Positions 14,603 to 39,646 are shown, numbered from the stretch's first letter. The stretch: DNA of 64,000 bases from an uncultured Candidatus Saccharibacteria bacterium (GCA_965230955.1 OZ246404.1:1060024-1124023), one strand, 5' to 3'. Numbers and translations are program-made. The notes: generated from the letters alone by a model not told the origin.

Positions 14603-16534
14603 ATGCCTACTCCTCTTAAAACAACCCTACTCATAGCCTGTGGCCTCGCTATTGCGATCGGGGGGTTTTTTATTTTTTACCATTTATCGTACGCCAACAA
14701 AATATTAGCCGGAGTAAGCGCGGCTGGATTTGATGTTTCCGGGCTGACCACCGAACAAGCACACGACAAACTTCAGACGGAGCTGAACAATTTAGCTGAT
14801 CAAGATATCAAATTCACCAGTGCCGGTAAAACCTGGATAGCCAAACCGGCGGATTTGGGCATTAATTTTAATATCGATCAAACAGCGGCCGAAGCCTTTG
14901 CCATTGGTCGCGGACAAGCCTGGTATATTAATCTTTGGAATGTCGCCCAGACGCTCTGGCGCGATCTCAAAATAGACCTATGCTATGACATCAATAAAGA
15001 CGCTTGGAATTCTTATCTGGCCGAACATTTTCGGGAACTTGAAACCGAACCAAACAACGCGTCACTTAAGATTAAGGGCAGTACGGTGACGGAAATCGCC
15101 AGTAAAGACGGGATTGTGGTTGATCGCAACCAGTTACTGAATCTAATCGAGAACCATCTCCAACAGCGATTAAACACTTCGATTACCCTGCCTTTTTCGA
15201 CTGCTTTTCCGATAATCAGCGACGATGATGTGGCTCCGGCAAAACTTTCAGCCGTCAACCTGCTCGGCAGCGGATTAACAGTAAAATACAAAGAGAAAAA
15301 CTGGAATTACAGCCGCGACCGCATTGGTCAAGCGATAAACTTCGTGATCAAAAATAGCGACGGTGCGGAAATTCCGGCTGAAGAAATATTCTCCTACGGA
15401 CAAAACCTGGATAATCCCAGTGCGCGACTGGAAGTAACTTTGCGTGGCGATGATTTTAAGAATTTTCTGGAAAATATCGGCCGGGAGATTGAAAAATCCC
15501 CTCTTAATGCCCATTTTAGAATCGAGGGGGAGCCCAAAATAACCCTGGATACCGCCAAAGATCCCGCCTCAATCGTCCCGGTCAGTATCGACGAACCGGC
15601 CAAAGAAGGTCTAAAGATAAATGCCCAAAATTTGAATCATGATATCAGCACCAATATTAATAACAATCAAACCACTGTTGATCTTTTCGTCGAGGTCAGT
15701 CAGCCGGAAATCACCGAAGCCAATGCCGCCGCCAAGGGCGTGACCAAATTGATTGGCCGAGGCGTCTCTAATTTTTCCGGCTCCCCATCTAATCGACGCC
15801 ATAACATCAGCGTCGGCGCCGCAAAATTTGACCGAGTTATTATTCAGCCGGGAGAGGAATTCTCTTTCAATACCATACTCGGTAAAGTCACCGAAGAAGC
15901 CGGGTACTTGCCGGAATTGGTAATTAAAAACAATGATACCGTCCCCGACCTGGGCGGAGGTCTCTGCCAAGTATCAACCACGGCTTTCAGGGCGGCCGTC
16001 GACGCCGGTCTGCCGGTGACGGAACGGAAGAATCACGCTTACGCCGTTTCTTATTACTCCCCCCAAGGAACCGACGCCACCATTTACCCGGGATCGAGTG
16101 ATTTAAAATTCATCAATAACACTCCCGGCTCGATATTGATTCAAACTTCCATATCCGGAAGCTCGCTAACTTTTGATTTCTTGGGAACATTCGATGATCG
16201 AGAGGTTGAAAAATTCAAACCACACACCTACGAACGTTTCGGCAATGGCGGACTCAAGGTCGAATGGTCTTACAAGGTAGTCCGCCAAGGAGAGACTCTG
16301 ACCGATAAAGTGTTCAAGAGTGTCTACCGCCCGCCGGAGGAGTTCCATAAATCACAGCAGGAAGAAGAGAAGAAAGCGGCTGAAGAAGAAGCCAAAAAGC
16401 AGGAAGAAGCGGCCAAAAAAGCGGCCGAAGAACAAAAAAAGAAGTCAACACCGACAACAACACCAACTCCCACTACCACCGCCAAGCCCTCACTAACTCC
16501 GACGCCCACTCCATCCTCTTCACCTAAACCATAA
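14603..16534 (+). CDS. VanW-family protein with N-terminal TM anchor and C-terminal Glu/Lys and Thr/Pro-rich tail
   Basis: VanW-domain signature (GGGLCQVSTTAFRAAVDAGLP) and an N-terminal membrane anchor. The C-terminus is low-complexity EEKKAAEE and TPTPT repeats. Confidence 0.7.
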   Translation: MPTPLKTTLLIACGLAIAIGGFFIFYHLSYANKILAGVSAAGFDVSGLTTEQAHDKLQTELNNLADQDIKFTSAGKTWIAKPADLGINFNIDQTAAEAFAIGRGQAWYINLWNVAQTLWRDLKIDLCYDINKDAWNSYLAEHFRELETEPNNASLKIKGSTVTEIASKDGIVVDRNQLLNLIENHLQQRLNTSITLPFSTAFPIISDDDVAPAKLSAVNLLGSGLTVKYKEKNWNYSRDRIGQAINFVIKNSDGAEIPAEEIFSYGQNLDNPSARLEVTLRGDDFKNFLENIGREIEKSPLNAHFRIEGEPKITLDTAKDPASIVPVSIDEPAKEGLKINAQNLNHDISTNINNNQTTVDLFVEVSQPEITEANAAAKGVTKLIGRGVSNFSGSPSNRRHNISVGAAKFDRVIIQPGEEFSFNTILGKVTEEAGYLPELVIKNNDTVPDLGGGLCQVSTTAFRAAVDAGLPVTERKNHAYAVSYYSPQGTDATIYPGSSDLKFINNTPGSILIQTSISGSSLTFDFLGTFDDREVEKFKPHTYERFGNGGLKVEWSYKVVRQGETLTDKVFKSVYRPPEEFHKSQQEEEKKAAEEEAKKQEEAAKKAAEEQKKKSTPTTTPTPTTTAKPSLTPTPTPSSSPKP

Positions 16535-17660: not shown

Positions 17661-19079
17661 TTAGTAATGAATCACTACCGGTGTACCAACTTCGATCATG
17701 TTATAAAGTATCGGGGCCTCTTTCATACCAACACGGACACAGCCATGAGACACGCGAATCCCCAAATGATTTTCACCTTCAACGTATCCGCCGGGCCATT
17801 CCGGCAACTGATGAATATAAAACCCGCCTGAATGAAATTTGAGGCTATAAGGCATCCAGAGGCCGTATTTTCCCGACCAATGGCGAGCTTCTTTGCTCAA
17901 GACGGTGAATTGTCCGTCCGGTGTCGGCATGCCGGGCCGTCCGGTTGAAGTAATCGCCTCCAGGCGTTGGCGGCCATTTTCGTAAACACGCAGACGCTGA
18001 TTGGTTAGGTCAATATCGATATATTTATGCAAGTCGCGCCGCCCTTCCCAAATGAATTTGCGCGGTCCGGTGATTATTTCCGCCCGACCATCAGCATTCA
18101 GATCACCCGCCGCTACATTAACCCCGCCGCGAAAATCGTTTTCATACACAACCTTGCTGAATTTCGACGGCTGGCCGCCGTATTCGAAACTTTTTACTTC
18201 CGGGACGCTATTGGACGCCCGCGACGCCAAAACTTCTTCCGCTCCATCGCCATCAATATCGCCCGCAGCCACTCTAGCCCCGTCTTTATAATCCTCCGGG
18301 AAGGCTATAAAACTCCCGATTATGGTTTTGGTTGAATCGGGACGATAAACCTTGATACTAGCCGTACTCATCGAAGCGGCGCTGGTGATAATTTCATCTA
18401 CGCCATCTTTATCGACATCGCCCAAAGCCACATCAACCCCGCCATGGAAATCAGCAGGTTGCGGGAAGAAATCCAAGCCCAGATATTTACCCGATCCGTC
18501 AAAAACTCGGACATGAGGATTACCTCCTAGGCCGGCACCGACTACCACTTCCGCCCGTCCGTCTTTATTGATATCGCCAACGGCGACATTAACACCGCCT
18601 TTGAACTCCGGAGCAAAAGCCAACCACTCCACCAAAACTTGTCCCGAAGGTTTGTAAACTTTGACTCGCGTATCGCCATCACTGGCCTGGGAAACGATAA
18701 TTTCACTTTTGCCGTCGCCGTTTGTATCCCCCAAAGCAATGTCGGACGTGCCGCGAAAATTCGGATGAAAAGGAAAAATTGAAATACCGTTAAAAACACC
18801 GCGCTCGGTGAAACCTCTGATATGAGTCCGGCCGCCTTGTCCGGAAACAGTCACAATTTCAGACTTCTCATCACCAAGAATATCGCCCACCGCTACCGCT
18901 ACTCCCCCGCCAAAAAGACGTGAATAAGCCATGATATTAGCATCCAGATTGCCGCCGGCGCTATAAACTCTAACTTCCGGCGCACGGGCCTCAATCCCCG
19001 CCATGGCATCCGCGACCGGAATCGTTAGCATGGCTCCGGCAATAATCGCGATCCAAAGGAATGTTTTTGTTTTAAACAT
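17661..19079 (-). CDS. secreted FG-GAP-repeat protein with C-terminal L,D-transpeptidase (YkuD) catalytic domain
   Basis: Signal peptide, then five or more GDxNxDGxxEIV repeats. The C-terminus carries the catalytic HxxSHGCVRV motif of L,D-transpeptidases. Confidence 0.75.
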   Translation of the reverse strand: MFKTKTFLWIAIIAGAMLTIPVADAMAGIEARAPEVRVYSAGGNLDANIMAYSRLFGGGVAVAVGDILGDEKSEIVTVSGQGGRTHIRGFTERGVFNGISIFPFHPNFRGTSDIALGDTNGDGKSEIIVSQASDGDTRVKVYKPSGQVLVEWLAFAPEFKGGVNVAVGDINKDGRAEVVVGAGLGGNPHVRVFDGSGKYLGLDFFPQPADFHGGVDVALGDVDKDGVDEIITSAASMSTASIKVYRPDSTKTIIGSFIAFPEDYKDGARVAAGDIDGDGAEEVLASRASNSVPEVKSFEYGGQPSKFSKVVYENDFRGGVNVAAGDLNADGRAEIITGPRKFIWEGRRDLHKYIDIDLTNQRLRVYENGRQRLEAITSTGRPGMPTPDGQFTVLSKEARHWSGKYGLWMPYSLKFHSGGFYIHQLPEWPGGYVEGENHLGIRVSHGCVRVGMKEAPILYNMIEVGTPVVIHY

Positions 19080-19485: not shown

Positions 19486-20475
19486 ATGTTGCGTCGCGCC
19501 GCTCGAAATGCTCTGACCACCTGCCTCGCCGTCAAAAAAAACGAGGAAGTTTTAATCGTGTCTGATTTCAAAAGACTGGCGATTGCCACGGCCCTGTACC
19601 AAGAAGCGTTGATACTAGGCGCCGAACCAATGATCAAACTGATGCATCCCCGAGTCGGTCACGGGATTGAGCCGCCCCGCACCGTCGCCCGAGCCATGGC
19701 TGAAGCTGATGTCGTGCTTTGTCCCACAGAAAAAAGCCTGACACACACCGATGCCCGCCGGATAGCTTGTGAAAAACACGGCAGCCGCATTGCCACCCTA
19801 CCGATGATCACGGAGGAAATATTTATCCGCGGTCTGTTGGCTGATTATTTGGATATAAAAAAACAATCGGAGAAACTTTTGAGCCTGGTGAACTCGGCCC
19901 AAACCGCCCGGATCACTTCCCCCAGCGGAACCGATTTAACCATAAATCTCAGTAATCGCTTTCACGCTGATATCGGCGTAATCCCCAAACCGGGAATGTA
20001 CACCAATTTGCCCGCCGGTGAAGTCTGCGGCGCACCGCTGGAAGGCACGACTGAAGGTATTTTTGTCATAGACCAGATGGGTGAGGTTGTCGATCAACCG
20101 ACACGGGTCGAGATCCGTTCCGGCATCGCCGTAAAAATCGAATCTAACCCCAGCGGCCGGCGACTAAAAAAAATTCTGGATTCTGCCAGTAAACGGGATA
20201 AGAATAACCACGCCTTTAATATAGCCGAATTGGGTATTGGCACCAATCCCGCCGTAAAATTGTCCGGCTGTGTATTGGAAGACGAAAAAGTATTAGGCAC
20301 TGTTCATGTCGCTCTGGGGGATAATACCAGCTACCATGGCGGACAAACCTCGGCTTCAGTGCATGAAGACGGCATTATGATCAGGCCGACGCTAAAACTA
20401 GATGATCGGGTGATTATGAAAGATGGAAAGATGGTAAAATCAAGTCAAAAGTCAAAAGTCAAAGGTCAAAAGTAA
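19486..20475 (+). CDS. aminopeptidase-like protein (M29 / AmpS-like family, tentative)
   Basis: Overall resemblance to thermophilic-metalloprotease (M29) family proteins. The last 10 codons are encoded by one arm of a GTCAAAAG palindrome. Confidence 0.45.
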   Translation: MLRRAARNALTTCLAVKKNEEVLIVSDFKRLAIATALYQEALILGAEPMIKLMHPRVGHGIEPPRTVARAMAEADVVLCPTEKSLTHTDARRIACEKHGSRIATLPMITEEIFIRGLLADYLDIKKQSEKLLSLVNSAQTARITSPSGTDLTINLSNRFHADIGVIPKPGMYTNLPAGEVCGAPLEGTTEGIFVIDQMGEVVDQPTRVEIRSGIAVKIESNPSGRRLKKILDSASKRDKNNHAFNIAELGIGTNPAVKLSGCVLEDEKVLGTVHVALGDNTSYHGGQTSASVHEDGIMIRPTLKLDDRVIMKDGKMVKSSQKSKVKGQK

Positions 20476-20601: not shown

Positions 20602-20838
20602 CTACACTCGCACTTGGTTGTCGACAACGACCGCGTTAGCCAGAAGGCTTTTGAGATGGTGGATCTCCCGGTCGATGTCCTGCTTCATCTCGTCCAGAAT
20701 GATGAAAGCCGGTGAAGATTGGTCCGTAATGCTGGCCATCTTCTGGGCGATCTTCCTGACTTCGACCATCTCAAGCTGATTGAGACGGTGGCGAATGTGG
20801 TCTATCCCCTGTGGCGGAAGAAAAACTTCTTCAGACAT
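20602..20838 (-). CDS. hypothetical small coiled-coil protein (weak GreA-N-terminal-like pattern)
   Basis: 78 aa, predicted helical. Resemblance to the Gre-factor N-terminal coiled coil is faint, and there is no FKBP-like C-terminal domain. Confidence 0.3.
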   Translation of the reverse strand: MSEEVFLPPQGIDHIRHRLNQLEMVEVRKIAQKMASITDQSSPAFIILDEMKQDIDREIHHLKSLLANAVVVDNQVRV

Positions 20839-21100: not shown

Positions 21101-21802
21101 ATGTCGGGACATTCCAAATGGTCGCAAATTAAACATAAAAAAGGAGCCACGGACGCCAAGAAAAGCGCGGCTTTTACCAAAATTGCCAACATGATCACCA
21201 TTGCGGCCAGATTGGGCGGCGGCGATCGCGGCAGTAATCCCCGCTTGGATATGGTCATGGGGAAAGCCCATGAAATGAACATGCCCAAAGATAATATTGA
21301 ACGGGCTATAAAAAGAGGAACGGGAGAACTGGAAGGTGTGACCTTGGAAGCTCTGACTCTGGAAGCTTATGGTCCGGGCGGTTCCGCCTTGATCATTGAA
21401 GCCATTACCGATAACAAAAACCGGACAATTACCAATATCCGAAACATTCTTGGCCAGCACGGAGGAAAACTGGCCAATAGCGGCAGCGTCATTTATCAAT
21501 TCCAGAAAAAAGGTGTTATCCGCGTAAAAAATCCCAGCGATGAATTGGAGCTGAAAGTTATTGACGCGGGAGCCGAAGATACAAAAAAAACCGACACGCT
21601 TTTGGAAATATACACGCGGCCGGAAGACCTGCAAAAAGTAAAAAATAATTTACCGGGGTTGGCGATTGAATCAGCTGATTTGGAGTATTTGCCCCAGACA
21701 ACAATTTTACTTAATGGAGAAACAAAAAAACAGACCGAGGAACTGCTGCAAACTATCGCCGAACACGACGACGTCCAAGAAATCTACAGCAATCTGGCCT
21801 AA
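21101..21802 (+). CDS. yebC: YebC/PmpR family DNA-binding regulator
   Basis: N-terminus MSGHSKWSQIKHKKG...KSAAFTKI is diagnostic of the YebC family. It has the conserved position upstream of ruvC. Confidence 0.9.
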   Translation: MSGHSKWSQIKHKKGATDAKKSAAFTKIANMITIAARLGGGDRGSNPRLDMVMGKAHEMNMPKDNIERAIKRGTGELEGVTLEALTLEAYGPGGSALIIEAITDNKNRTITNIRNILGQHGGKLANSGSVIYQFQKKGVIRVKNPSDELELKVIDAGAEDTKKTDTLLEIYTRPEDLQKVKNNLPGLAIESADLEYLPQTTILLNGETKKQTEELLQTIAEHDDVQEIYSNLA

Positions 21803-22293: not shown

Positions 22294-23862
22294 ATGGTTA
22301 TGTTTAGAAAAATTTCACTGTCACTGGCTTTGGTCGCGGTTATCGCCGTGATCGGTTTAAGTACGCCAAAAACTAACGCGGAAGACGCCGTCCCGGCGCC
22401 CAGCCAGACTACGGCGGTGGAAGAAACTCTGCCCCAACGACAACTGGAAGCGGTGGCCGGAGAAGATCAAAATGTCCCGGTCGGAAGCAAGGTGATTTTC
22501 GACGGTTCCAAATCGGTCAATTCAAAAGATGGCGAACTGCGCTATAACTGGGATTTCGGCGACGGCACGACAGTCGATGGTGTGAACGAACTCCATGTTT
22601 ATAATGATCCGGGAATATACATCGTCAGATTAACCGTCACGAACGGCGAACAATCCGACACCGATGAAATTGTGGTCTCGGTCTATGAAAATTTGGTTTT
22701 ATTGATTACCGATAGTTCCACCAAAGAAGAATCCTTGCAAGACTTGGAACGTAGCGCCGCCCGCGAAGGAGTTCTAATTATACGAGTGCAGGACACAAGC
22801 GGACAGCCGGACTATATCGCGGTCGAAACTCTGGCGAAAGCCTTGGCGGAACAGCGGACCAATATTCAAAAATCAAACCTGCTGATCGACTGGACCAGCG
22901 GCTCGGTCGGACTCAACGCCCTGACAAAATTCATTCAGCCGGCGGAAAACATCAAAGAACTTGACCTGACTCATAAAGCGATCGTTTCCGTGACAACCAA
23001 AGCCGGCGTAACCTCGCGTATCGCCCAGCAGACTTATGATCTGGTGAAACCGGAATTCATCGTCCTGACCGACGAAAGCGCTTTGAAGAATCTAATTTCA
23101 GCAAAAACTCCGGCGGAATTATTGGAAAATCTGCGACGCTCGCCGGTGGAATATAAAATAATCGGCATACATAGCGAACGCTCCATCAAAGAACTGGGCT
23201 GGACCAATTTCATGTCCTACACCATCAATTACATGGTCAATAACGGCGTACCGATCAACACTATTTTCCTAATATTGATCATCCCGATTATCGCCACCAT
23301 AATCGCTCTCTCCCGCCAAGTGATCGGAATCAAGGCCTTTGGTTTATACATACCGACTATTCTAACCCTGGCCTTTCTGGTAACCGGTATTAAATACGGC
23401 TTGGCTATTTTTATTGCCATCTTGATCGTCGCCACTCTAGTCAGAATCCTGTTGAAATATCTGCGTATTCTTTATTTGCCGCGCATGGCCATGGTTTTGA
23501 CCGCCACCGCGCTGGCGATCTTTGTCATGTTCGCCTTCGGCGCTTATTCCAATCGGACCGGATTCATTGCCATTTCAATATTCCCCATACTGATCATCGC
23601 TATTTTGGCCGAGGAATTTGTGAAAGTCCAGATTGAAAAGGGTTTTGTCACCGCCATTCAATTGGCGGTCGAGACTCTGATTATCGCCACCCTGTGCTAC
23701 TTCCTTGTCAGCTGGGAAGCGGTCAGAACTTTCTTCCTCAGTTATCCCGAAACAATTTTGCTCACTATCCCACTCAACTACTTACTCGGTAAATGGACCG
23801 GATTACGCTTAACCGAATATTTCCGGTTCCGTGAATTACTAAAACATGATAAGTCCGCGTGA
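22294..23862 (+). CDS. signal peptide + PKD domain + extracellular domain + C-terminal 7TM domain membrane protein (7TM-inactive-transglutaminase-like partner of the ATP-grasp)
   Basis: PKD signature (YNWDFGDGTT...YIVRLTVTN), then a domain of about 200 aa, then seven predicted TM helices. The stop overlaps the downstream ATP-grasp start by 17 nt. Confidence 0.6.
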   Translation: MVMFRKISLSLALVAVIAVIGLSTPKTNAEDAVPAPSQTTAVEETLPQRQLEAVAGEDQNVPVGSKVIFDGSKSVNSKDGELRYNWDFGDGTTVDGVNELHVYNDPGIYIVRLTVTNGEQSDTDEIVVSVYENLVLLITDSSTKEESLQDLERSAAREGVLIIRVQDTSGQPDYIAVETLAKALAEQRTNIQKSNLLIDWTSGSVGLNALTKFIQPAENIKELDLTHKAIVSVTTKAGVTSRIAQQTYDLVKPEFIVLTDESALKNLISAKTPAELLENLRRSPVEYKIIGIHSERSIKELGWTNFMSYTINYMVNNGVPINTIFLILIIPIIATIIALSRQVIGIKAFGLYIPTILTLAFLVTGIKYGLAIFIAILIVATLVRILLKYLRILYLPRMAMVLTATALAIFVMFAFGAYSNRTGFIAISIFPILIIAILAEEFVKVQIEKGFVTAIQLAVETLIIATLCYFLVSWEAVRTFFLSYPETILLTIPLNYLLGKWTGLRLTEYFRFRELLKHDKSA

Positions 23863-26248
23863 CATTCTCGGGATGAATGCGCGCAACCTGCGCTACCTTC
23901 GTCCTTCCAATCCGCGCTCGGCTGTCCGCTTGGCTGATTCCAAGCTGAAAACAAAACTGATTTTGGCCGAAGCGAAAATACCCACCCCAAAAGTTTTCGG
24001 GATGTTTAAGCATGCCCGGCAAATTGATAAATTCAATTGGGATAATCTGCCGGAAAATGTAGTGCTCAAGCCCAATCGCGGTTTCGGCGGCGAAGGGATT
24101 GTGGTTTTTTCCAAAAAGGAAAAAGGTCCGGATAATCGCCCGGTCTGGCTGACCGGCGACGGCGAGCGCTGGACGATCGAAGATATTCGGCGGCACATCC
24201 TGAATATTTTGGACGGTGACTTTTCACTGCAGAACATTCCGGACAATGCCTTCTTTGAGGAAAAAATAGTGACCCATCGGGTGATGAGACGTTATACCTA
24301 CAAGGGACTGCCGGATGTCCGGGTGATCGTTTATAACAAGGTCCCGGTGATGGCGATGTTACGCTTGCCCACCAAATGGTCTAAAGGCAAGGCTAATCTG
24401 GCCCAAGGCGCGATCGGAGTCGGAATTGATATGGCCACCGGACAAACTACGACCGCCGCGACCAAAAAGCCGGTGCACAAACCAGTTTTTAAGCATCCCG
24501 ATACCCTTCAAGACCTGAAAGGTTTGGTTGTCCCTTACTGGAACGAAATTTTAGAAATGGCTATCCGCTGCCAAGAAGTGACCAAGATTGGCTACATTGG
24601 AGCTGATATTGCCATCGATGAAAAATACGGGCCGCTGATTCTGGAGCTCAATGCGCGCCCGGGCTTGGAAATTCAGAACGTCAATCTCGCACCACTGGGT
24701 TCGCGCTTGCGTCGCCTGGAAGGATTAAAAGTTCGCACTTTGGAAAAAGGCGTGCGCTTGGCCAAGGAATTGTTCGGCGGCGGAGGAGAAAAAAAAGTTG
24801 ATGAGCTGATCAGTAAGACGGTCATCAGCCCGGAGGAAACTTTGGAAATAATTTCACCGGACGGACAACGCCACCGGATACTGAGTCGAATTGACACCGG
24901 CGAAGGTTTGACTCTGATTGACTCGTCCCTGAGCCAAAAACTCGGCTTGTCTAACGCTAAAATAGAGACTACCGACAGTCTGGAAAAGCACCACAGTGAA
25001 TTAGTGAATCTAACCTTAGCGCTGGCTGGAGAAAAAATCAGAACCAAAGCGGCGCTGACGGACCGAACGGGACACCGTCATTTGATTGTTATCGGCCGTC
25101 GTGATTTACGTCCATTCTTGATCGATACCAGCCGAAGAGAACAACTGGAAAAAACCAAAAAACTGGATTATACCAAGATTGATCAGGTCCTAGTCGAAGT
25201 CAGTCGTAAAATTCCCCTGCTCTCCGCCTTGACTCCGGTCAATTTGGAAATCGAAAAAGAAAAGTTTTTCGCGCAAGAAAATTATTCGCCGCAATTCGTT
25301 TACAAAAAACCTTCGAGCAGTGAGCTGGATTTACTGAGATCCCGCTTGGAAATTTTTCAACTGGCCAATGATTCTTCCACCCTGGGTCGATTGTTTTATC
25401 GGAAACAACAAGAACTTCTTAAAAAAATCGAAGCGGTCCGAGCGATTGGATCAGCGGAATTTACCGCCCGGTCTTTGGAGCTATACGGAGAGCCCAGTCA
25501 AGAGTTGGTGGAATTAGCGGAAAAAAATTATCAGAACAAGAAACCGGTGGAAAACAATGGTGCCTATCTGAAACAGCCGGAAGTAATCAAGCTTTTGAGC
25601 GATAAATTAGATCAGGTAAAAATCCCCTACAAGATTGTCGTGGTTAAAGATTTGTCAGCTCGGATCACTGTTAAAACTCTGGAAAAATCCATTTTAATCA
25701 ACTTGCGAGCCGAAGCGCTTTTCAAACATTCCGATCTGATCGGCACGATCGCCCACGAAATAGAAACTCATGCCTACCGCTACGCCAACGGTATGCAGCA
25801 GACTTATAAATTATTCAGTGAAGGTTTGGGCGGATACTTGGCCACCGAAGAAGGCTTGGCTATTTACAGTAAAGAACAAGCCTATAAAAATCCGCGTAAA
25901 TTCATCACTCGCGCCCTGGATGTTCTGGCGGTACACTGGGCCCTGACCGATTCGTTCCACGAAGTTTATCAGCGCCTGCGCGCCAAAGGCGTCCTACCCA
26001 AAACGGCTTTTTCAGTCACTTATCGCACCAAGCGTGGCTTGTCAGACACCAGCCGCCCCGGCGCCTTTACTCGAGACTTTTTGTATCTAAAAGGATTGTT
26101 GGAAATCGAGAAATATCTCGACCAGGGATTTGATCTCCGAAAACTATATATCGGCAAAATCGGGATCAGTGATCTGCCGGAAATTAAAAAGCTAAGCGGA
26201 ATTAAGGAGCCGAAATATCTACCGGAATGGCTGATGGGTAAAAAATAA
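23846..26248 (+). CDS. fusion of a RimK-like ATP-grasp ligase, a retropepsin-like (PF05618-like) domain and a DUF1704/MATCAP-like HExxH domain
   Basis: N-terminal region of about 320 aa: MNARNLRYL...LADSKLKTKLIL, VVLKPNRGFGGEGIVVF and LILELNARPGLEIQN are ATP-grasp motifs of the alpha-L-glutamate-ligase-like family. Middle: RIDTGEGLTLIDSSL ... VIGRRDLRPFLID resembles a retropepsin. C-terminal region of about 320 aa: HEIETH plus TEEGLAIY resembles the QEGLA/DUF1704 family. Confidence 0.7.
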   Translation: MISPRDILGMNARNLRYLRPSNPRSAVRLADSKLKTKLILAEAKIPTPKVFGMFKHARQIDKFNWDNLPENVVLKPNRGFGGEGIVVFSKKEKGPDNRPVWLTGDGERWTIEDIRRHILNILDGDFSLQNIPDNAFFEEKIVTHRVMRRYTYKGLPDVRVIVYNKVPVMAMLRLPTKWSKGKANLAQGAIGVGIDMATGQTTTAATKKPVHKPVFKHPDTLQDLKGLVVPYWNEILEMAIRCQEVTKIGYIGADIAIDEKYGPLILELNARPGLEIQNVNLAPLGSRLRRLEGLKVRTLEKGVRLAKELFGGGGEKKVDELISKTVISPEETLEIISPDGQRHRILSRIDTGEGLTLIDSSLSQKLGLSNAKIETTDSLEKHHSELVNLTLALAGEKIRTKAALTDRTGHRHLIVIGRRDLRPFLIDTSRREQLEKTKKLDYTKIDQVLVEVSRKIPLLSALTPVNLEIEKEKFFAQENYSPQFVYKKPSSSELDLLRSRLEIFQLANDSSTLGRLFYRKQQELLKKIEAVRAIGSAEFTARSLELYGEPSQELVELAEKNYQNKKPVENNGAYLKQPEVIKLLSDKLDQVKIPYKIVVVKDLSARITVKTLEKSILINLRAEALFKHSDLIGTIAHEIETHAYRYANGMQQTYKLFSEGLGGYLATEEGLAIYSKEQAYKNPRKFITRALDVLAVHWALTDSFHEVYQRLRAKGVLPKTAFSVTYRTKRGLSDTSRPGAFTRDFLYLKGLLEIEKYLDQGFDLRKLYIGKIGISDLPEIKKLSGIKEPKYLPEWLMGKK

Positions 26249-26319
26249 GACTTTCCTGCTGATTGGCAATATTTTGCCAAAATAAAACAGCCCGGGGTAA
26301 ACATTGGGCTGTTTTTAAT

Positions 26320-27780
26320 CTATTTTTTTTGATCTAGCTTGTCTAAATCTTCGTCGTTAATTTCTAATTGATCTAATACCCAGAGATGCCTGGCGTTATG
26401 CGGATCATATTTACCAACACAAAATCTCTGCATTTCGTCAGGATTTGTTCTGATTACTTCCCAGGTATTAAGAGTCCCCTCACGATAACCCATATCCTTG
26501 GGGTAACAAGCTCCGGGAGTTTTACAATCGGTACCCCGGAAAATGCGCGTACAGGTATTGTAAGCCGTTTGTTCTGCTGCTTTTTCCGCCTCGGGCAATT
26601 TTTTCCCTTGAGCCATTTCTCGCACCGTCCACTGTTTTTTCAAAACTTCAAATACCCCTCGGAAATCTCTTTTTTGCCCATCAAGACCTTGGGCTAAGCC
26701 AATACCCAATATGTATTTCATATCAACATCAAAGGGATCGACGTAATTATCCATAGCTTGTTCCATCGCCCCGGTCACCCCTTCCTCGCCTGCAATAAAT
26801 CGATCCAATCCTAAACCCAGCAACATTAATTTACTGCGCTCTCCTTTTATTCTTCGAGCCACATGGGTGCCGATTTCGTGAATTATTAATTTGGCCATAT
26901 CTTTCGCCGGCTTTGAAACTGGTATTTTTGTAGGAATAAATACTTTTTCCTGAGCCTGGTTAACCGCCATAGTCACACGACTCCCGGTGTCAATTACTAC
27001 CTGCCAGTTATCCGCTCCCACCACCTTAAAAGCCGCTTCAAAAGCCAGGCCTATTTGTTCTCGGTTCAATTCCTCTTCTCCGCCACCAGTGAGAGCTATC
27101 AAATTGCCCATCTTTTTCTCGGTGAACTCACGCAATGTATTAACGTCGCTTTGTTCCGGAGGAGTGAAAGCAACCGCTCTTTCCAAATTTTGCGGTAAGA
27201 TCGCCAGAACATCTTCGGCCGCCTTTTTTTCTTGGGGATCGACCGAGGTTATAAAACGATCAGTATCCGATCGAGCAAGATCGACCACATAAGAGAAAAC
27301 ATCTTTAGACGGTTTTCCGTAAATAAAATCAGCGTAACGTTTAAACCTCCGCATATCACCGCTCGCCGTAGCTTGTAACATCCTCAGTTCTGCCACTTTT
27401 TCGTTTATTTTCCAGCGATAGGCCTGCCGGACTACTTCATTTGGTTCTTGATCAATAATCTCTTCCTTTAATCGAAGTAAGGAGTCTTCCTTTTGCTGAA
27501 AAACTTCCGGCTTGGCATCGGGATAATCAAATTTAGGGTTATCAATTTTACCCTCCAGAAAATCGGCTTTCTGTTGGCTGCGATTGTCTGGATTTCCTTC
27601 AAAGAATTCTATGTCGGAGAAAGCGCCCGCTTCTCGAAAACGAGAATACCATTTCACGTCCAGAGCCTCTTTTGTGACTATTTCTTTTGACAATCCTTCC
27701 GCGCTTATTTCTTTTTCCGACTTTGTTTCCGGAACAAATTCCGGCTGTTCGGTTGGCATCGGCTTGAAATTTTCACCCAT
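26320..27780 (-). CDS. DUF1704/MATCAP-like putative zinc metallopeptidase (HEIGTH and GEEGVTG motifs)
   Basis: HExxH (LIIHEIGTHV) followed by an EEG-containing motif, like the C-terminal domain of the upstream fusion. Convergent with it, and they share a bidirectional terminator. Confidence 0.5.
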   Translation of the reverse strand: MGENFKPMPTEQPEFVPETKSEKEISAEGLSKEIVTKEALDVKWYSRFREAGAFSDIEFFEGNPDNRSQQKADFLEGKIDNPKFDYPDAKPEVFQQKEDSLLRLKEEIIDQEPNEVVRQAYRWKINEKVAELRMLQATASGDMRRFKRYADFIYGKPSKDVFSYVVDLARSDTDRFITSVDPQEKKAAEDVLAILPQNLERAVAFTPPEQSDVNTLREFTEKKMGNLIALTGGGEEELNREQIGLAFEAAFKVVGADNWQVVIDTGSRVTMAVNQAQEKVFIPTKIPVSKPAKDMAKLIIHEIGTHVARRIKGERSKLMLLGLGLDRFIAGEEGVTGAMEQAMDNYVDPFDVDMKYILGIGLAQGLDGQKRDFRGVFEVLKKQWTVREMAQGKKLPEAEKAAEQTAYNTCTRIFRGTDCKTPGACYPKDMGYREGTLNTWEVIRTNPDEMQRFCVGKYDPHNARHLWVLDQLEINDEDLDKLDQKK

Positions 27781-27784
27781 AAAA

Positions 27785-28813
27785 TTAATTTTTAATTATT
27801 CTATTATAAATCTCCAAATATTTCTCCGCCATTTGCCGGCTATCAAAATTTTCTTCGGCATAGCGGCGGCACCGCTCCCGATCAAAAATTTTATCCACTG
27901 ACTTGATCGCCGTTATTAATCGGTGATCATCATTTGATAAACAAGCGATTTGGGGCTGACCGCCGATTATTTCCGGCAAGGGGCCAATATCGGTCGCAAT
28001 GACCGGCGTCCCGCAAGCCGCCGCTTCCAAAACCAGCAAGCCGCAAACTTCCGGCTTAGCGATAGTGAACAAAAGAGCCTTGGCGTTTTTCAGATAAGAC
28101 AAAACGTCGTCATGGCTTTTTTCTCCCAAGTATTCGATTTTTTCATCCAAATGCGGCTTTATTTTTTCGGCAAAATATTTTTGTCGATCTGGTTCATGGC
28201 CGATCCGGCCGATAATCAGCAATTTCTCTCCCGCTGTCTGCGCCAGTTTGATCGCTCGGTCGATCCCCTTTTGCGGCGTTAACCTGGCGACACAAATCAG
28301 ATAACGGCCCGGCTTGGTGGAAAAAGCGATTTGCCCGACCGGAATTCCGTTATGGATCGTGGCGAAAGAATCCAATTTCCCCTTCTGCGTCTCGGATAAA
28401 GTGATGGTATAAATTCCGGCTTGTTTTAATTTGATAAAATCCTTAGGCTCAATCATGCTGTGAATTGAGAGCAAACACGGTTTCTTCGCCTGAGACGCGA
28501 CAGAAGCCGCCTGCCGCTGAGAATGGAGATGAATCAGATCAAATCGATCTTGATGCATCAGAACTTTTTGCTGGCTCTGGGTAATGAGTTTCTGCTTTTC
28601 CTGATCGCTCATTTGGCCCAATTGGGGCATATTCCAGAGGCTGCGCGGTAAAGTGGCAATATGTTTAGCCGAAGTGACCCAATCCGCCGGCGCAAAAAGA
28701 GTGACATCAACTTTTAATTTCACCAATTCTTCCGTCAAATTGTAAGCCACTTGTTCCGGCCCGCCGGTAATCCCAAAGGGCGGCACCACCATGGCTAATT
28801 TGAATGACGACAT
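27785..28813 (-). CDS. glycosyltransferase family 4 (GT-B, group 1)
   Basis: GT4 C-terminal pattern (EGFGLP-like region PEVCGLLVLEAAACGTPVIATD). The start is 5 nt after the upstream ATP-grasp stop. Confidence 0.8.
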   Translation of the reverse strand: MSSFKLAMVVPPFGITGGPEQVAYNLTEELVKLKVDVTLFAPADWVTSAKHIATLPRSLWNMPQLGQMSDQEKQKLITQSQQKVLMHQDRFDLIHLHSQRQAASVASQAKKPCLLSIHSMIEPKDFIKLKQAGIYTITLSETQKGKLDSFATIHNGIPVGQIAFSTKPGRYLICVARLTPQKGIDRAIKLAQTAGEKLLIIGRIGHEPDRQKYFAEKIKPHLDEKIEYLGEKSHDDVLSYLKNAKALLFTIAKPEVCGLLVLEAAACGTPVIATDIGPLPEIIGGQPQIACLSNDDHRLITAIKSVDKIFDRERCRRYAEENFDSRQMAEKYLEIYNRIIKN

Positions 28814-28817
28814 AAAA

Positions 28818-29780
28818 TCAAATAAAGTTTTTCATCACACTGTCGCGGAAAAATTTCTCGCGATCGTCTTTTGTTCCGGTCAGATAAATTATATCCAAGC
28901 CCGGGCTAGTGTTCAGCTCCATCAACCAAGGACGTTCCCGGTCGTCAAAAATAAAATCAAGGGTATAGAGCGAATATGGGAAGAAAGACAGTCGTCGGTC
29001 AATTTTTTTTGCGATGGTCATGGCGGTCTTAGGTATGGCCTCTAAGGAAACCTTTTCCGCCTTAGCTCCTTGGTGAATATTCGTGAACAAAGAATCTTCC
29101 TTGGCTCGCCGTGAAAGCGCATAAATCAGCTCATGATTGGAAAAAATCAAACGCAAATCGGCCAACCCCGGTGCTTGGGAAACTCCCGGCACTCCTTTGG
29201 TATTCTCTTTAAATTCTTGCACCAACACCGGAAAGGGCAGATCTTTTTTGATAATTTCCAATGGAGAATCAATAGAAATTCCAAACCCACCGGAACCAAA
29301 CAGCGGCTTGACCACTATTTGCCCTGATTGTAACTGCGACAACGCTTCTTTTAATTCCCTGGGGCTGGAGGCGATGAAAGAAGCGGGCATAAATTCTCCC
29401 AAGCATAAAAATTGCGCCGCCTTACTACCCAGTAACGAACGAAACAAAGGATGATTGAATATCCGACAATTTTCGGAAATTTTCAATTTCAGGTCCAAGA
29501 GACCGCTTCCTTTAGCGCCGACCGTCTTATCAAAAACCAGATCCGGCACAATCAGTTTTTCGTGTTTTTCCCAGCGTCCCCCGACACTGGTCCAGGCTTT
29601 GGTAAATCCTTTTTTAGCGGTGTCATACCAATTTATCTCGGCGCGATAAACCGACACCCCTTGTTTTAGGCCAAATTCACACCACTCGGCCAAAGCCGCA
29701 GCGGTGGTTTCTGATCCGGTTTCGGGTAATTTTTTCGCCCAATCATCACCGGTATAAACTATGACTAATGATTTATTCAT
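28818..29780 (-). CDS. ATP-grasp fold enzyme (sugar-transfer-associated type), co-operonic with GT4
   Basis: IVVKPLFGSGGFGISI and WLMELNTSPGLDI ATP-grasp motifs. Tightly coupled to the GT4 gene. Confidence 0.6.
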   Translation of the reverse strand: MNKSLVIVYTGDDWAKKLPETGSETTAAALAEWCEFGLKQGVSVYRAEINWYDTAKKGFTKAWTSVGGRWEKHEKLIVPDLVFDKTVGAKGSGLLDLKLKISENCRIFNHPLFRSLLGSKAAQFLCLGEFMPASFIASSPRELKEALSQLQSGQIVVKPLFGSGGFGISIDSPLEIIKKDLPFPVLVQEFKENTKGVPGVSQAPGLADLRLIFSNHELIYALSRRAKEDSLFTNIHQGAKAEKVSLEAIPKTAMTIAKKIDRRLSFFPYSLYTLDFIFDDRERPWLMELNTSPGLDIIYLTGTKDDREKFFRDSVMKNFI

Positions 29781-32104: not shown

Positions 32105-35011
32105 ATGACACCTCGCCCCGCCCAATCATGGTTTTATCAAGAATCCCGCCCCAGCGGGACTCTTTGGGGTAAAAAAGGTAAATCCCAACCGGATAAACCG
32201 AAAAAAGAGTCCGGCCAGGCAAAAGATCCGCTGAAAAAGAAGAAGCGCTGGAAGAAAACCCTGAAAATCATCGGATATACTTTTCTGGTATTGGCTTTGT
32301 TTATTGTGGCTGTTTTCTTATGGGTCGCCAAAGATTTACCATCCAGCAAAGACATCTTGAGCGGACGCCTGGTAGATCAGGCCACGCAAATTTATGACCG
32401 CACCGGCGAACACCTCTTGTTTGAAATTCACGGCGATGAAAACCGCACTCTGGTAAAAATCAATGATCTGCCGGCTTATGTCCACCAAGCCACCGTGGCG
32501 ATCGAAGACGATTCTTTTTACCGCCACCCGGGCTTTGATGTCATGGGTATTATGCGCGCCGCCTGGAAAGATATCACCGGGCAGGGGTATTCCCAGGGCG
32601 GTTCGACCATAACCCAACAGCTGATCAAAAATACCATTCTGACTCCGGAAAAAACTTTCACGCGCAAGGTGAAAGAATTAATTATGTCGATTGAGTTGGA
32701 AATAAAACTTAGCAAAAGCGAAATTCTGGAATTATATCTAAATGCCATTCCTTACGGTTCAAATGCTTATGGAATCGAAGCCGCGGCGCAGACATTTTTC
32801 GGCAAGCCGGCGGAAGAATTGACCGTTAGCGAATCGGCTTTACTGGCCGGACTCCCCCGGGCGCCGACTTATTATTCCCCTGTCAATCATCCCGAACGAG
32901 CCAAAGCCCGGCAAGAAAAAGTTCTCGATCGCATGGCTGAATTAGGCTATATTTCAGAGGAAAAGGCGGCTGAGGCCAAAGCGGAAAACATAAAAGTCAC
33001 CATCAGAAAAAATATCGCCACAGCGCCACATTTTGTCGATTATCTGAAAGAAGTGCTGGTTGATGAATATGGCATAAAGAAAGTAGAAACCGGCGGACTA
33101 AAAGTCATCTCCACCCTAAATATTGATCATCAAAAAATAGCAGAAGAAGTCATTTCGGAACAACGCGCGGCTAATACCAAATACGACGTTCATAACGGCG
33201 CGTTAATCTCTGTTGACGCTAAAACCGGCGAAATTTTATCAATGGTGGGATCGGTTGACTACTATACCGATGATGACGAAGGTGGAAAAATGGACGGCCA
33301 AGTGAATGTTACCACCGCCTACCGCTCCCCCGGATCTTCGATCAAACCATTGGAATATTCCACAGCCTTTGCCAGAGGTTTCCCGCCGACCACGATGGTT
33401 TATGACGTAAAGACGTCTTTCCCCGACGGCAGTGGTAAAGATTACACTCCGAAAAATTTCAGCGGAGGCTTTGCCGGACCTATTTCTTTTCGCTCGGCCC
33501 TGCAGCAATCATTGAATATTCCAGCGGTAAAAGCGTACTACCTGGCGGGAGCGGAAAATGTTTCCACGATGGCCGCCAAACTTGGTTATGATAATTTTGT
33601 CGCCGGCAAGGAATACGGCTTGGCCACCGCCATTGGCGGCCGAGAAGTTACAGCGCTGGATCACGTGGGGATGTATCAAACTTTTGCTAACAGAGGAAAA
33701 TTAAAAGACCCCACCGGAATTATAAAAGTAACCGATTCGACCGGCACTGTCCTGGAAGAAATCGACCCTAATCGCGGCGAACAAGTCATGGATCAAAATG
33801 TCGCCGATACGATGAATAATGTGCTCTCTGATAACGGTGCCAGAACATGGGGAAAGCGGGAATTGGTTCTCAAGGATCGTCCGGTGGCCGCGAAAACCGG
33901 CACCAGTAATAAAGAATTTGGTTCCGGTATCCGGCCAAATAATCTCTGGACTTGCGGCTATACGCCTCAGATCGCCACGGCTGTTTGGGTCGGTAATAGC
34001 AACGGTTCGGCGCTCGCCGCCAGCGCCGAAGGATTGATAAACGCCGCGCCGATTTGGCAGAAATATATGAACCGCGTACATGAAGGTTTGCCGGTCGAAG
34101 ATTTTTCTGAACCAAAAACAATCGAATCAAATAAGCCGATGCTGCAAGGAAAAATATCGGGAGAAATTGAAGTTGAAATCTGCCAGCCCTCCGGTTTGCT
34201 CGCTAATGAGTATTGCCCGGCTTCAAAAAGAGAAAAAAAGAAATTTCGCGATTCTCATTGTATTCTCTATTATGTCAATCGCAAGGATCCCATGGGCGAC
34301 CGCTTGAAAAACCCTAAGGAAGACCCGCAATTCCAAAATTGGGAAGAAGGCGTGAGAGCTTGGGCCCAATCCAGTGATTACGGCGGAATTCCGCCCACTG
34401 AAACCGACACCCTGCACAATCCTGAAAACTGGCCGTCAATTTCAATTACCTCGCCCAATAGCGGAGAAACGATCACTTCCGGGATTTTCTCGGTCACCGT
34501 AAACGCCTCGGGCAAAAATCAGCTCAAAGAAGTGATTTACAGCGTGGACGGGAAAAAGGTCGGATCTTCGACCAAAAGCCCATTTAGCGCCAGTTTGGTG
34601 CTACCGGCGGGTATTACCAACGGCTTTCATACCCTAAGCGCCACGGTCTATGACATTGCCGACAACAAAGCCGAGACCAATATCGATCTGAATTTCAAAG
34701 TCACTAATGTCAAACCTTCGGTGTCGATGCTCTCGCCCGGCAGCGGAACATCTGTTTCCGCCGGAGCCGCCGTCTTGGTATCAGCCAAGGCCTCAGGGAG
34801 TACTCCTATTACCAGAGTGGAGTTTTTTGCCCAGTCGCCGGACGGCGCCGTGACGTCTTTTGGGGCCGATTCTTCGCCCGACGGATCCGGGACATACGGA
34901 ATGACTTGGACCGCGGCCGGTGCCAAAGGCACTTATTACTTATTTGCCCAGGTTCAAGATGAATCTGGCAATAGCGCTCAGAGCGGAAAAGTTTCGGTAG
35001 CGGTTAATTAA
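32105..35011 (+). CDS. bifunctional class A penicillin-binding protein (glycosyltransferase GT51 + transpeptidase) with C-terminal Ig-like domains
   Basis: GT51 motifs (AIEDDSFYRHPGFD, GGSTITQQL), SxxK/SxN/KTG transpeptidase motifs, and an N-terminal TM anchor. Confidence 0.9.
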   Translation: MTPRPAQSWFYQESRPSGTLWGKKGKSQPDKPKKESGQAKDPLKKKKRWKKTLKIIGYTFLVLALFIVAVFLWVAKDLPSSKDILSGRLVDQATQIYDRTGEHLLFEIHGDENRTLVKINDLPAYVHQATVAIEDDSFYRHPGFDVMGIMRAAWKDITGQGYSQGGSTITQQLIKNTILTPEKTFTRKVKELIMSIELEIKLSKSEILELYLNAIPYGSNAYGIEAAAQTFFGKPAEELTVSESALLAGLPRAPTYYSPVNHPERAKARQEKVLDRMAELGYISEEKAAEAKAENIKVTIRKNIATAPHFVDYLKEVLVDEYGIKKVETGGLKVISTLNIDHQKIAEEVISEQRAANTKYDVHNGALISVDAKTGEILSMVGSVDYYTDDDEGGKMDGQVNVTTAYRSPGSSIKPLEYSTAFARGFPPTTMVYDVKTSFPDGSGKDYTPKNFSGGFAGPISFRSALQQSLNIPAVKAYYLAGAENVSTMAAKLGYDNFVAGKEYGLATAIGGREVTALDHVGMYQTFANRGKLKDPTGIIKVTDSTGTVLEEIDPNRGEQVMDQNVADTMNNVLSDNGARTWGKRELVLKDRPVAAKTGTSNKEFGSGIRPNNLWTCGYTPQIATAVWVGNSNGSALAASAEGLINAAPIWQKYMNRVHEGLPVEDFSEPKTIESNKPMLQGKISGEIEVEICQPSGLLANEYCPASKREKKKFRDSHCILYYVNRKDPMGDRLKNPKEDPQFQNWEEGVRAWAQSSDYGGIPPTETDTLHNPENWPSISITSPNSGETITSGIFSVTVNASGKNQLKEVIYSVDGKKVGSSTKSPFSASLVLPAGITNGFHTLSATVYDIADNKAETNIDLNFKVTNVKPSVSMLSPGSGTSVSAGAAVLVSAKASGSTPITRVEFFAQSPDGAVTSFGADSSPDGSGTYGMTWTAAGAKGTYYLFAQVQDESGNSAQSGKVSVAVN

Positions 35012-36693: not shown

Positions 36694-36984
36694 TTACTTA
36701 ATGATAATCTTTATCCGCTCGATTTTTTGGGCGGATTTTTTGTTTATTCGTTCCAAGAGTTCCGGTTCCCGCCAATGCAAGGCCTGGGCATAATTAGACG
36801 AAGGAACGGATATTTTTATGACACCTTCGGCAAAAGAAATTGTTTCCATCGGCGCCAAAACTTCGGCGGGAAATATTTGAGCCGCTTCGGTTTCAAAAAT
36901 CTGACAAACGGAAGTGGCGGCGATAGGCGCTTGTAAGCCGTAACGACTGACGATTTTTTGTAATTCATCCTTAATATTGTTCAT
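36694..36984 (-). CDS. DUF721 (DciA-like) small protein downstream of recF
   Basis: Size, and the conserved position after recF with a 4-nt overlap. Sequence similarity is weak. Confidence 0.4.
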   Translation of the reverse strand: MNNIKDELQKIVSRYGLQAPIAATSVCQIFETEAAQIFPAEVLAPMETISFAEGVIKISVPSSNYAQALHWREPELLERINKKSAQKIERIKIIIK

Positions 36985-38117: not shown

Positions 38118-38122
38118 AGCCC

Positions 38123-38416
38123 TTATTTTTTGGGCGAGGTGAGCGGATCAAAACCGGAATCAATCTCTTGTTTATCATTGTAACCATCGCCATCGGTGTC
38201 TTTATTACGCGGATCGGTTCGATAAATATCTTTTTCCTGTTTATCGGTCAAGCCATCGCCGTCGCTATCAATCTTGTCATCAAGTAAACCGCCTGAAACC
38301 GGTGCCTTTTGGGTATCGCCGGACCAATAATAAGCGGCGGCAAAATAGGCGCTTGTGCCCAGGGCACATACACCCAAAACCGCTAAAATCAGAGCAATAA
38401 TCAAGAGGATTTTCAT
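38123..38416 (-). CDS. small secreted protein with thrombospondin-type-3-like Ca-binding repeats (DxDxDG)
   Basis: Signal or TM segment, then DSDGDGLTDKQEKD and DTDGDGYNDKQE repeats. It is inserted between dnaN and recF. Confidence 0.5.
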   Translation of the reverse strand: MKILLIIALILAVLGVCALGTSAYFAAAYYWSGDTQKAPVSGGLLDDKIDSDGDGLTDKQEKDIYRTDPRNKDTDGDGYNDKQEIDSGFDPLTSPKK

Positions 38417-38417
38417 T

Positions 38418-39524: not shown

Positions 39525-39646
39525 AATAGTTAGTAATTTATTTAAATATCTTTATTGTATATAGTAAGGGTTGTGAATTCAGGGGAAAAGTGGTTTAAAG
39601 CTCTGAGTAGAAAGAAATTATTTGGGGATTGTAATTGGGTAAAGTT

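Follow-up and report, generated by a model that had tools for sequence, protein, structure and literature searches.

In Pseudomonas aeruginosa, the association of a RimK-like ligase, a seven-transmembrane (7TM) protein and a retropepsin-like protease was characterised in 2025 as the rloABC system (Lormand et al., mBio 2025, PMC12239564). Here we analyze a locus of related make-up at positions 22294-27780 of a 64,000-nucleotide (nt) stretch of DNA (this whole stretch is referred to below as the window) from an uncultured Candidatus Saccharibacteria bacterium (GCA_965230955.1 OZ246404.1:1060024-1124023), an organism known from metagenome-assembled genomes only. The locus encodes a 7TM protein, an 800-amino-acid (aa) protein in which an ATP-grasp ligase is fused to a retropepsin-like and a MATCAP-like (DUF1704) domain, and a separate MATCAP-family protein of 486 aa. 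An earlier reading of the sequence alone (the original prediction) had treated the three-gene association as uncharacterised, a view that the work on rloABC has overtaken.

P. aeruginosa depends on its secreted RloA proteases for tolerance of hypo-osmotic conditions and of beta-lactams, for biofilm formation and for cell shape; both RloA and RimB cut runs of at least eight glutamate residues, and the RloA variant D48N is inactive (PMC12239564). Deletion of rloB or rloC suppresses the loss of the RloA proteases (PMC12239564), and the product of the ligase and the 7TM protein must therefore be one that needs trimming. RloB was reported to be 96% proteobacterial (PMC12239564). RimK is named a 'poly-alpha-L-glutamate peptides synthetase' in the titles of PDB entries 5zct, 5zk6 and 7qys, and the MATCAP/TMCP enzymes of eukaryotes, for which a metal motif composed of HExxxH and EEG has been defined (TMCP1), cleave Tyr and Glu from C-termini and shorten chains of polyglutamate (PMC10499314).

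We consider it somewhat probable that the locus is a Patescibacteria variant of a membrane-coupled Rlo/Rim-type system, in which the ligase would build an alpha-linked, probably glutamate-rich chain and the peptidases would limit its length. What is new here is a Rlo/Rim form in Patescibacteria with a fused cytoplasmic protease, another ectodomain and added MATCAP domains. The locus consists of the following features:

22294-23862, plus strand: 7TM gene, open reading frame for an RloB-like membrane protein of 522 aa
Within the 522-aa protein, N-terminal side: signal-peptide-like N-terminus; PKD domain, aa 53-130; flavodoxin-like alpha/beta ectodomain, aa 133-299
Within the 522-aa protein, C-terminal side: 7TM_transglut bundle, aa ~321-500; conserved cytoplasmic C-terminal helix, aa 505-521
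23846-26248, plus strand: fusion gene, open reading frame of 800 aa
23846-24778, plus strand: ATP-grasp amino-acid ligase domain of the RloC/RimK type, aa 1-311 (PF14397, TIGR02291)
24812-25135, plus strand: RimB/RloA-type retropepsin-like domain, aa ~323-430 (from homologues and profile search)
24893-24901, plus strand: DTG motif, aa 350-352, within the retropepsin-like domain
25163-26248, plus strand: fused MATCAP/DUF1704 metallocarboxypeptidase domain, aa ~440-800 (PF08014, Foldseek)
25754-25771, plus strand: HEIETH of the fused domain, aa 637-642
25847-25855, plus strand: EEG of the fused domain (in EEGLA, aa 668-672)
26320-27780, minus strand: standalone MATCAP-family gene, open reading frame of 486 aa, convergent with the fusion gene
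26863-26880, minus strand: HEIGTH of the 486-aa protein, which also carries GEEG

The ligase domain was recognised by matches spanning aa 13-291, to PF14397 (ATPgrasp_ST; 1e-71, 241.9 bits, cut-off 31.4) and to TIGR02291 'alpha-L-glutamate ligase-like' (3.7e-79); the score for the latter (266 bits) falls under the 314.2-bit equivalog cut-off, and by these scores the domain belongs to the RloC-type family without being an equivalog. Against the RimK model TIGR00768 it reached 53.9 bits (cut-off 143.4), its resemblance to RimK being at fold level only. When the AlphaFold model of the 800-aa protein (mean predicted local distance difference test, pLDDT, 87.9) was searched with Foldseek, the RimK structures 5zk6, 5zct and 7qys (E~1e-9), then LysX/ArgX, ranked after human MATCAP. 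Across 61 homologues, 27 charged or polar residues of the ATP-grasp domain are invariant. The protein has no signal-peptide-like hydrophobic N-terminus and begins with this cytoplasmic-type domain.

The top Foldseek match of the same model was human MATCAP (7z5g; E 8e-14, template modelling (TM) score 0.65, target-normalised, 22-24% identity), the structure with which the original prediction had proposed to compare the C-terminal domain. The fused domain (aa 473-797) matches PF08014 (3e-47, 161.8 bits, cut-off 27) and TIGR02421 'QEGLA' (1e-53), and the 486-aa protein also matches PF08014 (2e-19, 70.1 bits, cut-off 27); both MATCAP domains lie below the TIGR02421 equivalog cut-off. Their metal motif had been given as HExxH and is in fact HExxxH (HEIETH and HEIGTH). 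It is intact in both proteins, and H637, H642, E669 and G670 of the fused domain are invariant among its homologues, as are E302, H306, E333 and G334 across 47 homologues of the 486-aa protein. A profile of the latter family, compared with the PDB, had human MATCAP (7z5g) as its sole match (E 0.0015). The 486-aa protein belongs with other standalone MATCAP proteins of Patescibacteria, ~455 aa long, in a family that is distinct and widespread. The idea that its gene is a recent duplicate of the fused domain was rejected, as the two are only 26% identical.

The middle domain is accepted here as retropepsin-like, putatively of the RimB/RloA family, an assignment made via its homologues. Searched alone against Pfam, the window segment (aa ~312-436) gave nothing significant (best Asp_protease_2, E 0.08-0.14) and no PF05618 match; support for the PF05618 identity suggested by the original prediction comes through homologues and profiles. 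Among 25 homologous segments, PF05618 was matched by 6 and Asp_protease_2 by 14, the PF05618 matches of up to 4.6e-11 coming from homologues 48-54% identical. The top two PDB matches of a segment-family profile were 9g58 and 9g59, the crystal structures of RloA (E 0.003), and in the profile alignment R-I-DTG, LTDR and IGRRDL..FLID of the window correspond to K-L-DTG, LTDR and LIGSEAL..LVD of RloA. The window domain retains R348-x-D350-T-G (as R348-I-D350-T-G), D406-R407 and GRRDL, and by this alignment possesses both the catalytic D-T/S-G and the basic polyglutamate-channel residues of the RimB/RloA family. In the AlphaFold model it is all-beta and flanked by two low-confidence linkers.

A tandem ('retro-retro') arrangement of two retropepsin domains, also considered, was rejected; it reflected split hidden Markov model (HMM) matches of one domain with a longer insertion. 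Separately, two relatives carry an extra standalone retropepsin-like gene of ~160-180 aa directly after the ATP-grasp-retropepsin gene (L064 7119-7664, L071 4320-4802), and these extra genes recall the separate RloA/RimB.

The 522-aa protein matches PKD (PF18911, 1e-20) and 7TM_transglut (PF14402, 2e-30; 106 bits, cut-off 25), the NCBIfam RloB model aligning over its 7TM half only, and a test of membership found it to be without the periplasmic inactive transglutaminase domain of the RloB type. Its AlphaFold model (pLDDT 87.0) comprises an N-terminal hydrophobic helix, a PKD sandwich, a beta-alpha-beta domain and a helical bundle; the third of these, between PKD and 7TM bundle (aa 133-299), forms an alpha/beta domain of its own, modelled with confidence and not mentioned in the original prediction. 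The identities it had proposed for the PKD, 7TM_transglut, ATP-grasp and DUF1704 domains were all borne out by the Pfam/NCBIfam HMMs and the AlphaFold models.

By the positive-inside rule, the predicted topology of the 7TM protein is N-out, C-in, so that the polar residues invariant across 59 homologues (R341, Q342, R384, E440, Q446, R505, E508, R511, F512) would all fall in cytoplasmic loops or in the C-terminal helix. This conserved cytoplasmic face is a putative docking surface for the cytoplasmic enzyme.

The three open reading frames, the overlap of the first two and the terminator shared by the convergent genes were all found where the original prediction had placed them. On the plus strand the genes form a tight array, in which yebC (21101-21802) is followed by ruvC (ATG at 21807, to 22289), the 7TM gene 4 bases on, and the fusion gene. 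The 7TM gene and the fusion gene overlap by 17 nt (23846-23862, plus strand; ATG at 23846, TGA ending 23862) and are translationally coupled, and in nearly all relatives the 7TM and ligase genes adjoin or overlap. Between the stop codons of the convergent fusion and 486-aa genes lies a hairpin (26284-26315) with a G+C-rich 12-bp stem including 5 G-C pairs, preceded by an A-run and followed by a T-run, which is a bidirectional terminator-like element. In the window, this 71-nt terminator spacer stands alone where the 95% identical relative (L007 8499-9062; also L008 1853-2416) holds an extra 187-aa gene, with no Pfam match, between the standalone MATCAP gene and the fusion gene.

The distribution of the locus was analyzed by a scan of species-representative genomes, which yielded at least 576 confirmed places; the best 80 loci were examined with domain HMMs built from our own alignments. 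There are at least 120 clusters of full-length homologues of the 800-aa protein (38-89% identity), originating, among the matches listed, from Patescibacteria, Peregrinibacteria and Gracilibacteria plus one Nitrospirota, and carrying automated names such as 'tyrosine/phenylalanine carboxypeptidase domain-containing protein' and 'alpha-L-glutamate ligase-like protein/TIGR02421 family'. The PKD-7TM protein likewise has at least 120 clusters, and the triple fusion occurs in 27 of the 80 best loci, so neither the PKD decoration nor the fusion, both of which the original prediction did not recognise from described versions, is confined to the window. In the other 53 loci the protein is shorter, consisting of ATP-grasp and retropepsin parts and lacking MATCAP.

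The ligase gene is preceded by a 7TM gene in 75 of the 80 loci, as its immediate neighbour in nearly every case, and three of the five loci without one end at a contig edge. Among the contigs with Pfam annotation, the pair was found in two settings, yebC-ruvC...tyrS (L001-L003, L007-L010) and Big/fn3 protein...queA-spoIIE-STAS (L004-L006). The ectodomain composed of PKD and an alpha/beta domain is present in 19/27 triple-fusion loci versus 9/53 others; in the two-domain loci without it, the partner is usually a bare 7TM protein of ~220 aa. In one relative (L017) MATCAP is encoded by a separate gene directly after the ligase gene.

Three side observations were made on this linkage. In L070 (7272-9341) the 7TM, ATP-grasp and retropepsin parts occupy a single open reading frame, which is either a true fusion, backing physical association, or an assembly or frameshift artefact. 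In 30 of the 62 loci that extend far enough upstream, the 7TM gene is immediately preceded by ruvC in the same orientation. Finally, the order yebC-ruvC-7TM-ligase is kept down to 43% identity, an unusually stable synteny of the cassette with DNA-repair genes.

The original prediction had described three genes forming one unit, expected to stay linked in relatives. The linkage of the 7TM and fusion genes is as it proposed, but the 486-aa gene varies: relatives that are 87%, 63% and 43% identical do not have it next to their fusion gene (absent from L001-L006), the 95% relative does, and L009 carries two tandem copies. A standalone MATCAP gene adjoins the cassette in L007-L011, L013, L044, L046, L050, L069, L072 and L086, and lies within 8 kb in 8/53 two-domain loci and 2/27 triple-fusion loci; the Moranbacteria locus L010 has a ligase without fused MATCAP, and the standalone gene is present. 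Because its presence varies among relatives, the 486-aa gene is a lineage-variable accessory, not a fixed third member. The conserved core consists of two genes, for the 7TM protein and the ATP-grasp-retropepsin protein; accessory to it are the PKD ectodomain, MATCAP in any of its forms (fused, split or standalone) and additional RimK-like ligases.

One such ligase, omitted by the original prediction, is encoded close to the core and recurs with the cassette:

28818-29780, minus strand: second RimK-like ATP-grasp ligase, 320 aa (PF08443, 1e-11)
27785-28813, minus strand: glycosyltransferase of family GT4 (PF00534, 1e-23), between the standalone MATCAP gene and the second ATP-grasp gene

The second ATP-grasp is 23% identical to the fused one over 123 aa, and its homologues flank the cassette in at least 18/80 genome loci and also in L001, L003, L007 and L010; it is a probable accessory member of the cassette. 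The GT4 gene is kept only in the closest relatives (L001, L007, L009) and is replaced by further ATP-grasp genes in L002 and L003, so that its membership of the system is uncertain.

The two peptidase sites differ in their conservation. DTG is present in 48 of the 53 two-domain proteins (one more has DSG), whereas among the 28 triple fusions, window included, a canonical D[TS]G was found in five, the others having DPT, NTA, NST, ETG etc. In the alignment of 61 proteins the canonical retropepsin motif is present in 30 and HExxxH in 60, and the window's clade (P0001-P0010) is among the few with both sites intact. As RloA D48N is catalytically dead, many triple fusions must hold an inactive retropepsin domain. 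The decay of DTG in MATCAP fusions suggests functional replacement of the retropepsin; the simplest reading of these alignments is that the fused MATCAP may have taken over trimming, the old retropepsin domain remaining as a structural or substrate-binding module.

In the mechanism that we propose, the seven-helix membrane protein (N-out, C-in) would be made in step with the cytoplasmic enzyme and would probably dock it via its conserved cytoplasmic face. The RimK/RloC-type ATP-grasp would spend ATP to add L-amino acids, most likely glutamate, to a carboxyl terminus, giving an alpha-linked acidic chain that could be unattached or carrier-bound. As a dimer, the RimB/RloA-like retropepsin domain would cut inside long acidic runs, and the MATCAP-like zinc carboxypeptidase would trim the chain from its C-terminus, while the 7TM partner may dock or regulate the enzyme, or pass the product on. 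The 486-aa standalone MATCAP and the second RimK-like ligase may be accessory enzymes with other specificities. By analogy with rloABC, the role is probably in cell-envelope or osmotic homeostasis. Of this picture, the identity of the domains, their intact catalytic motifs and the linkage of the genes come directly from the analysis, while glutamate as substrate, a complex with the 7TM protein and the role in the cell are inferred.

The write-and-erase logic of ligase and peptidases, already present in the original prediction, holds and is strengthened by the known activities of these families. Its analogy to tyrosination fits less well: glutamylation and trimming are likelier, because polyglutamate is what the characterised relatives of each enzymatic domain work on (synthesised as poly-alpha-Glu by RimK, cut by RloA/RimB and shortened by MATCAP). 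The interpretation is supported by the domain identities, by the intact catalytic motifs of the window protein, by the suppression genetics of P. aeruginosa and by the low-salinity induction of a MATCAP-family gene and a GshB-annotated gene in Photobacterium damselae described below, and also by the observations that the pairing of MATCAP with an ATP-grasp recurs independently (fused, split or standalone in Patescibacteria; by adjacency in Shinella, Sinorhizobium and Photobacterium) and that the 7TM-ligase pair adjoins in two unrelated genomic settings.

Several points weigh against it. The amino-acid specificity is not readable from sequence, the ATP-grasp scoring under both the TIGR02291 and the RimK equivalog cut-offs, and the predicted TM score (pTM) of the 800-aa model, 0.51, makes its inter-domain arrangement unreliable. 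The catalytic Asp/Gly are gone in most triple fusions, and endo-cleavage is therefore not a family-wide property. The ectodomain is unlike that of RloB and the protease is cytoplasmic, not secreted, so the Pseudomonas phenotypes may not transfer. The nearby variable islands of extra ATP-grasps and glycosyltransferases fit a product beyond plain polyglutamate. As for a substrate or carrier, no open reading frame of at least 60 aa in the window has an acidic C-terminus; the conserved 78-aa frame at 20602-20838 has no acidic tail.

Other explanations were also weighed. One that we regard as unlikely, and which is that of the original prediction, is a reversible C-terminal tag on one specific protein at the membrane, as placed by RimK on S6 or handled by TTL/MATCAP on tubulin; the ligase would add a residue or short tail that the peptidases remove, in the manner of a regulatory switch. 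RimK- and TTL-type ATP-grasps do modify protein C-termini, with RimK/RpsF and LysX/ArgX/LysW structures among the closest folds, MATCAP enzymes act on protein C-terminal tails, and there are weak Pfam scores for the TTL family (the fused domain reached 17.4 bits against a cut-off of 20.1, and the second ATP-grasp 21.9). The window, however, encodes no candidate target with an acidic C-terminus, and the tail of the 7TM partner itself is basic, not acidic. In P. aeruginosa, too, no genome-encoded polyglutamate substrate was found, free polyglutamate remaining a possibility (PMC12239564). The fusion of eraser to writer would also suit the control of chain length better than a regulated switch.

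It is more doubtful still that the ligases attach amino acids or short peptides to a peptidoglycan precursor or a glycopolymer of the cell surface, the 7TM protein serving as membrane platform or exporter and the peptidases editing or recycling the peptide part. PF14397 is named 'sugar-transfer associated ATP-grasp', genes for GT4 and GT2 glycosyltransferases flank the second ATP-grasp in the window and closest relatives, and other relatives hold there 4-5 ATP-grasps, some Ddl-like, plus a DegT aminotransferase, but the glycosyltransferases are not conserved with the core pair and the fused hydrolase families cut alpha-peptide chains, not sugar-amide bonds. The same idea could account for the cell-shape and beta-lactam phenotypes of rlo mutants (PMC12239564) and for the altered, in fact raised, vesicle production upon disruption of an RloB-type gene in Shewanella (PMC12096838). 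Cell-wall genes near both genomic settings (YkuD, PBP1A, LytR, VanW, Mur ligase, MurJ) point the same way, although in the small genomes of Patescibacteria such genes are often near by chance.

Least probable of all is that the peptidases are maturation enzymes cutting a ligase-made precursor to a peptide of defined length, which the 7TM protein would export to serve as an osmolyte or signal. In its favour, coupling of the ligase to a 7TM partner is universal, and in P. aeruginosa the protease acts across the membrane from the ligase, so that a product or effect crosses it (PMC12239564), but fold comparison of the 7TM bundle gave no transporter-like fold, and the loss of the retropepsin site in most MATCAP fusions shows that the two peptidases are interchangeable, not sequential.

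A membrane-coupled system that makes and trims an acidic chain is the interpretation that we favour, and it bears on several wider questions. The repeated fusion or adjacency of MATCAP and ligases would give bacterial MATCAP a concrete role, the trimming of ligase-made acidic tails, and suggests a possible evolutionary root for the enzymes of tubulin detyrosination and deglutamylation. Tentatively, the ancestral job of bacterial MATCAP/DUF1704 might have been the erasing of amino-acid tails written by ATP-grasps; the tubulin pair TTL/TTLL and MATCAP/TMCP might then descend from, or recapitulate, such a module, which in Patescibacteria would have become a single polypeptide with MATCAP displacing the older retropepsin eraser. 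In the searchable literature we found nothing linking DUF1704/MATCAP to ATP-grasp ligases or discussing bacterial homologues.

The Rlo system, described from Proteobacteria, is extended here to the candidate phyla radiation, where its compact form suggests that the 7TM bundle and the ligase are essential and the ectodomain and type of peptidase dispensable. A single soluble 800-aa protein that combines writer and erasers would offer an easier biochemical route to the product of RloBC-type systems, and the decay of DTG is a natural experiment in which one peptidase has apparently replaced another.

The surroundings of the cassette contain further genes of note. Between the fusion gene and tyrS, L002 (10361-17881) and L003 (10352-14760) hold a variable island of 4-6 ATP-grasp genes (RimK-like and Ddl-like), which in L002 also includes a DegT aminotransferase and a DUF3541 gene; the window has GT4, one ATP-grasp and GT2 in this place. 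The island looks like a diversifying peptide- or glycan-modification island. Upstream of yebC lies a Peptidase_M29-like (aminopeptidase T-like) gene (19486-20475, plus strand), present also in L009 and replaced in L003 by an M20 peptidase at the same position. The cell-wall genes around the cassette are:

17661-19079, minus strand: FG-GAP/YkuD L,D-transpeptidase
14603-16534, plus strand: VanW/PG_binding_4 protein
32105-35011, plus strand: class A penicillin-binding protein with Big_7
35381-36691, plus strand: LytR-CpsA-Psr protein

Genes for RecF, DnaN and DnaA (36981-41182, minus strand) lie ~11-15 kb downstream of the cassette, and the cumulative GC-skew turns in this region, with a minimum at ~32-36 kb; the origin of chromosome replication is therefore probably contained in the window. 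The Moranbacteria locus L010 likewise has dnaA-dnaN at most ~7 kb from its cassette. A role in anti-phage defence was rejected, PADLOC having given no matches.

Four described systems can be set beside this locus. In the proteobacterial clusters of the 'QEGLA motif protein' (TIGR02421), made up of an N-formylglutamate amidohydrolase (FGase), an FGase-MATCAP protein and a GshB-like ATP-grasp, a MATCAP-family peptidase likewise stands beside an ATP-grasp amidoligase: MATCAP homologues adjoin a GshB-like ATP-grasp in Shinella, Sinorhizobium and Photobacterium, though not in one Vibrio plasmid. The ATP-grasp of these clusters is, however, GshB-like, MATCAP is fused to an FGase-like domain instead of a ligase, and there is no 7TM partner in the loci examined. 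The proteobacterial QEGLA proteins are 617-663 aa long, those of Vibrio/Photobacterium (L091 5113-7104, L094 4113-6101) being FGase-like-MATCAP fusions, an architecture unlike both Patescibacteria forms. In Photobacterium damselae at low salinity, the QEGLA gene RS17025 is up 27-fold and the GshB-annotated RS17020 38-fold, and rimK is also strongly induced (PMC10308900); judging from the locus tags, RS17025 and RS17020 are presumably adjacent.

The tubulin cycle (TTL/TTLL with MATCAP/TMCP1-2) also joins an ATP-grasp writer to an eraser of C-terminal Tyr/Glu with the MATCAP fold and HExxxH...EEG, and the fused domain of the window superposes on human MATCAP. The window differs in having no tubulin and no sign of a microtubule-binding region, in uniting writer and eraser in one polypeptide, and in its ligase, which is of the RimK/RloC type and not TTL.

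The RimK/RimB system (with RimA), which glutamylates ribosomal protein S6 and in which a cytoplasmic alpha-L-glutamate ligase and a polyglutamate-removing, likewise cytoplasmic protease of the retropepsin-like kind are in physical association, resembles the locus in this pairing, and RimK is among the closest solved folds of the window ligase. It has no membrane partner and no MATCAP, its two enzymes are separate proteins in contrast to the fusion in the window, and the score of the window ligase against the RimK model stays far short of the family cut-off.

With rloABC the locus shares an ATP-grasp of the PF14397/TIGR02291 type adjoining a PF14402 7TM protein and, as assigned in the window through homologues, a retropepsin-like protease of the PF05618 family, which cuts polyglutamate. 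In contrast to RloA, which is separate and secreted by means of a signal peptide, the retropepsin domain of the window lies inside the cytoplasmic ligase; its 7TM protein carries PKD and flavodoxin-like domains in place of the inactive transglutaminase (a bare 7TM in many relatives); MATCAP domains are added, and the hosts are Patescibacteria.

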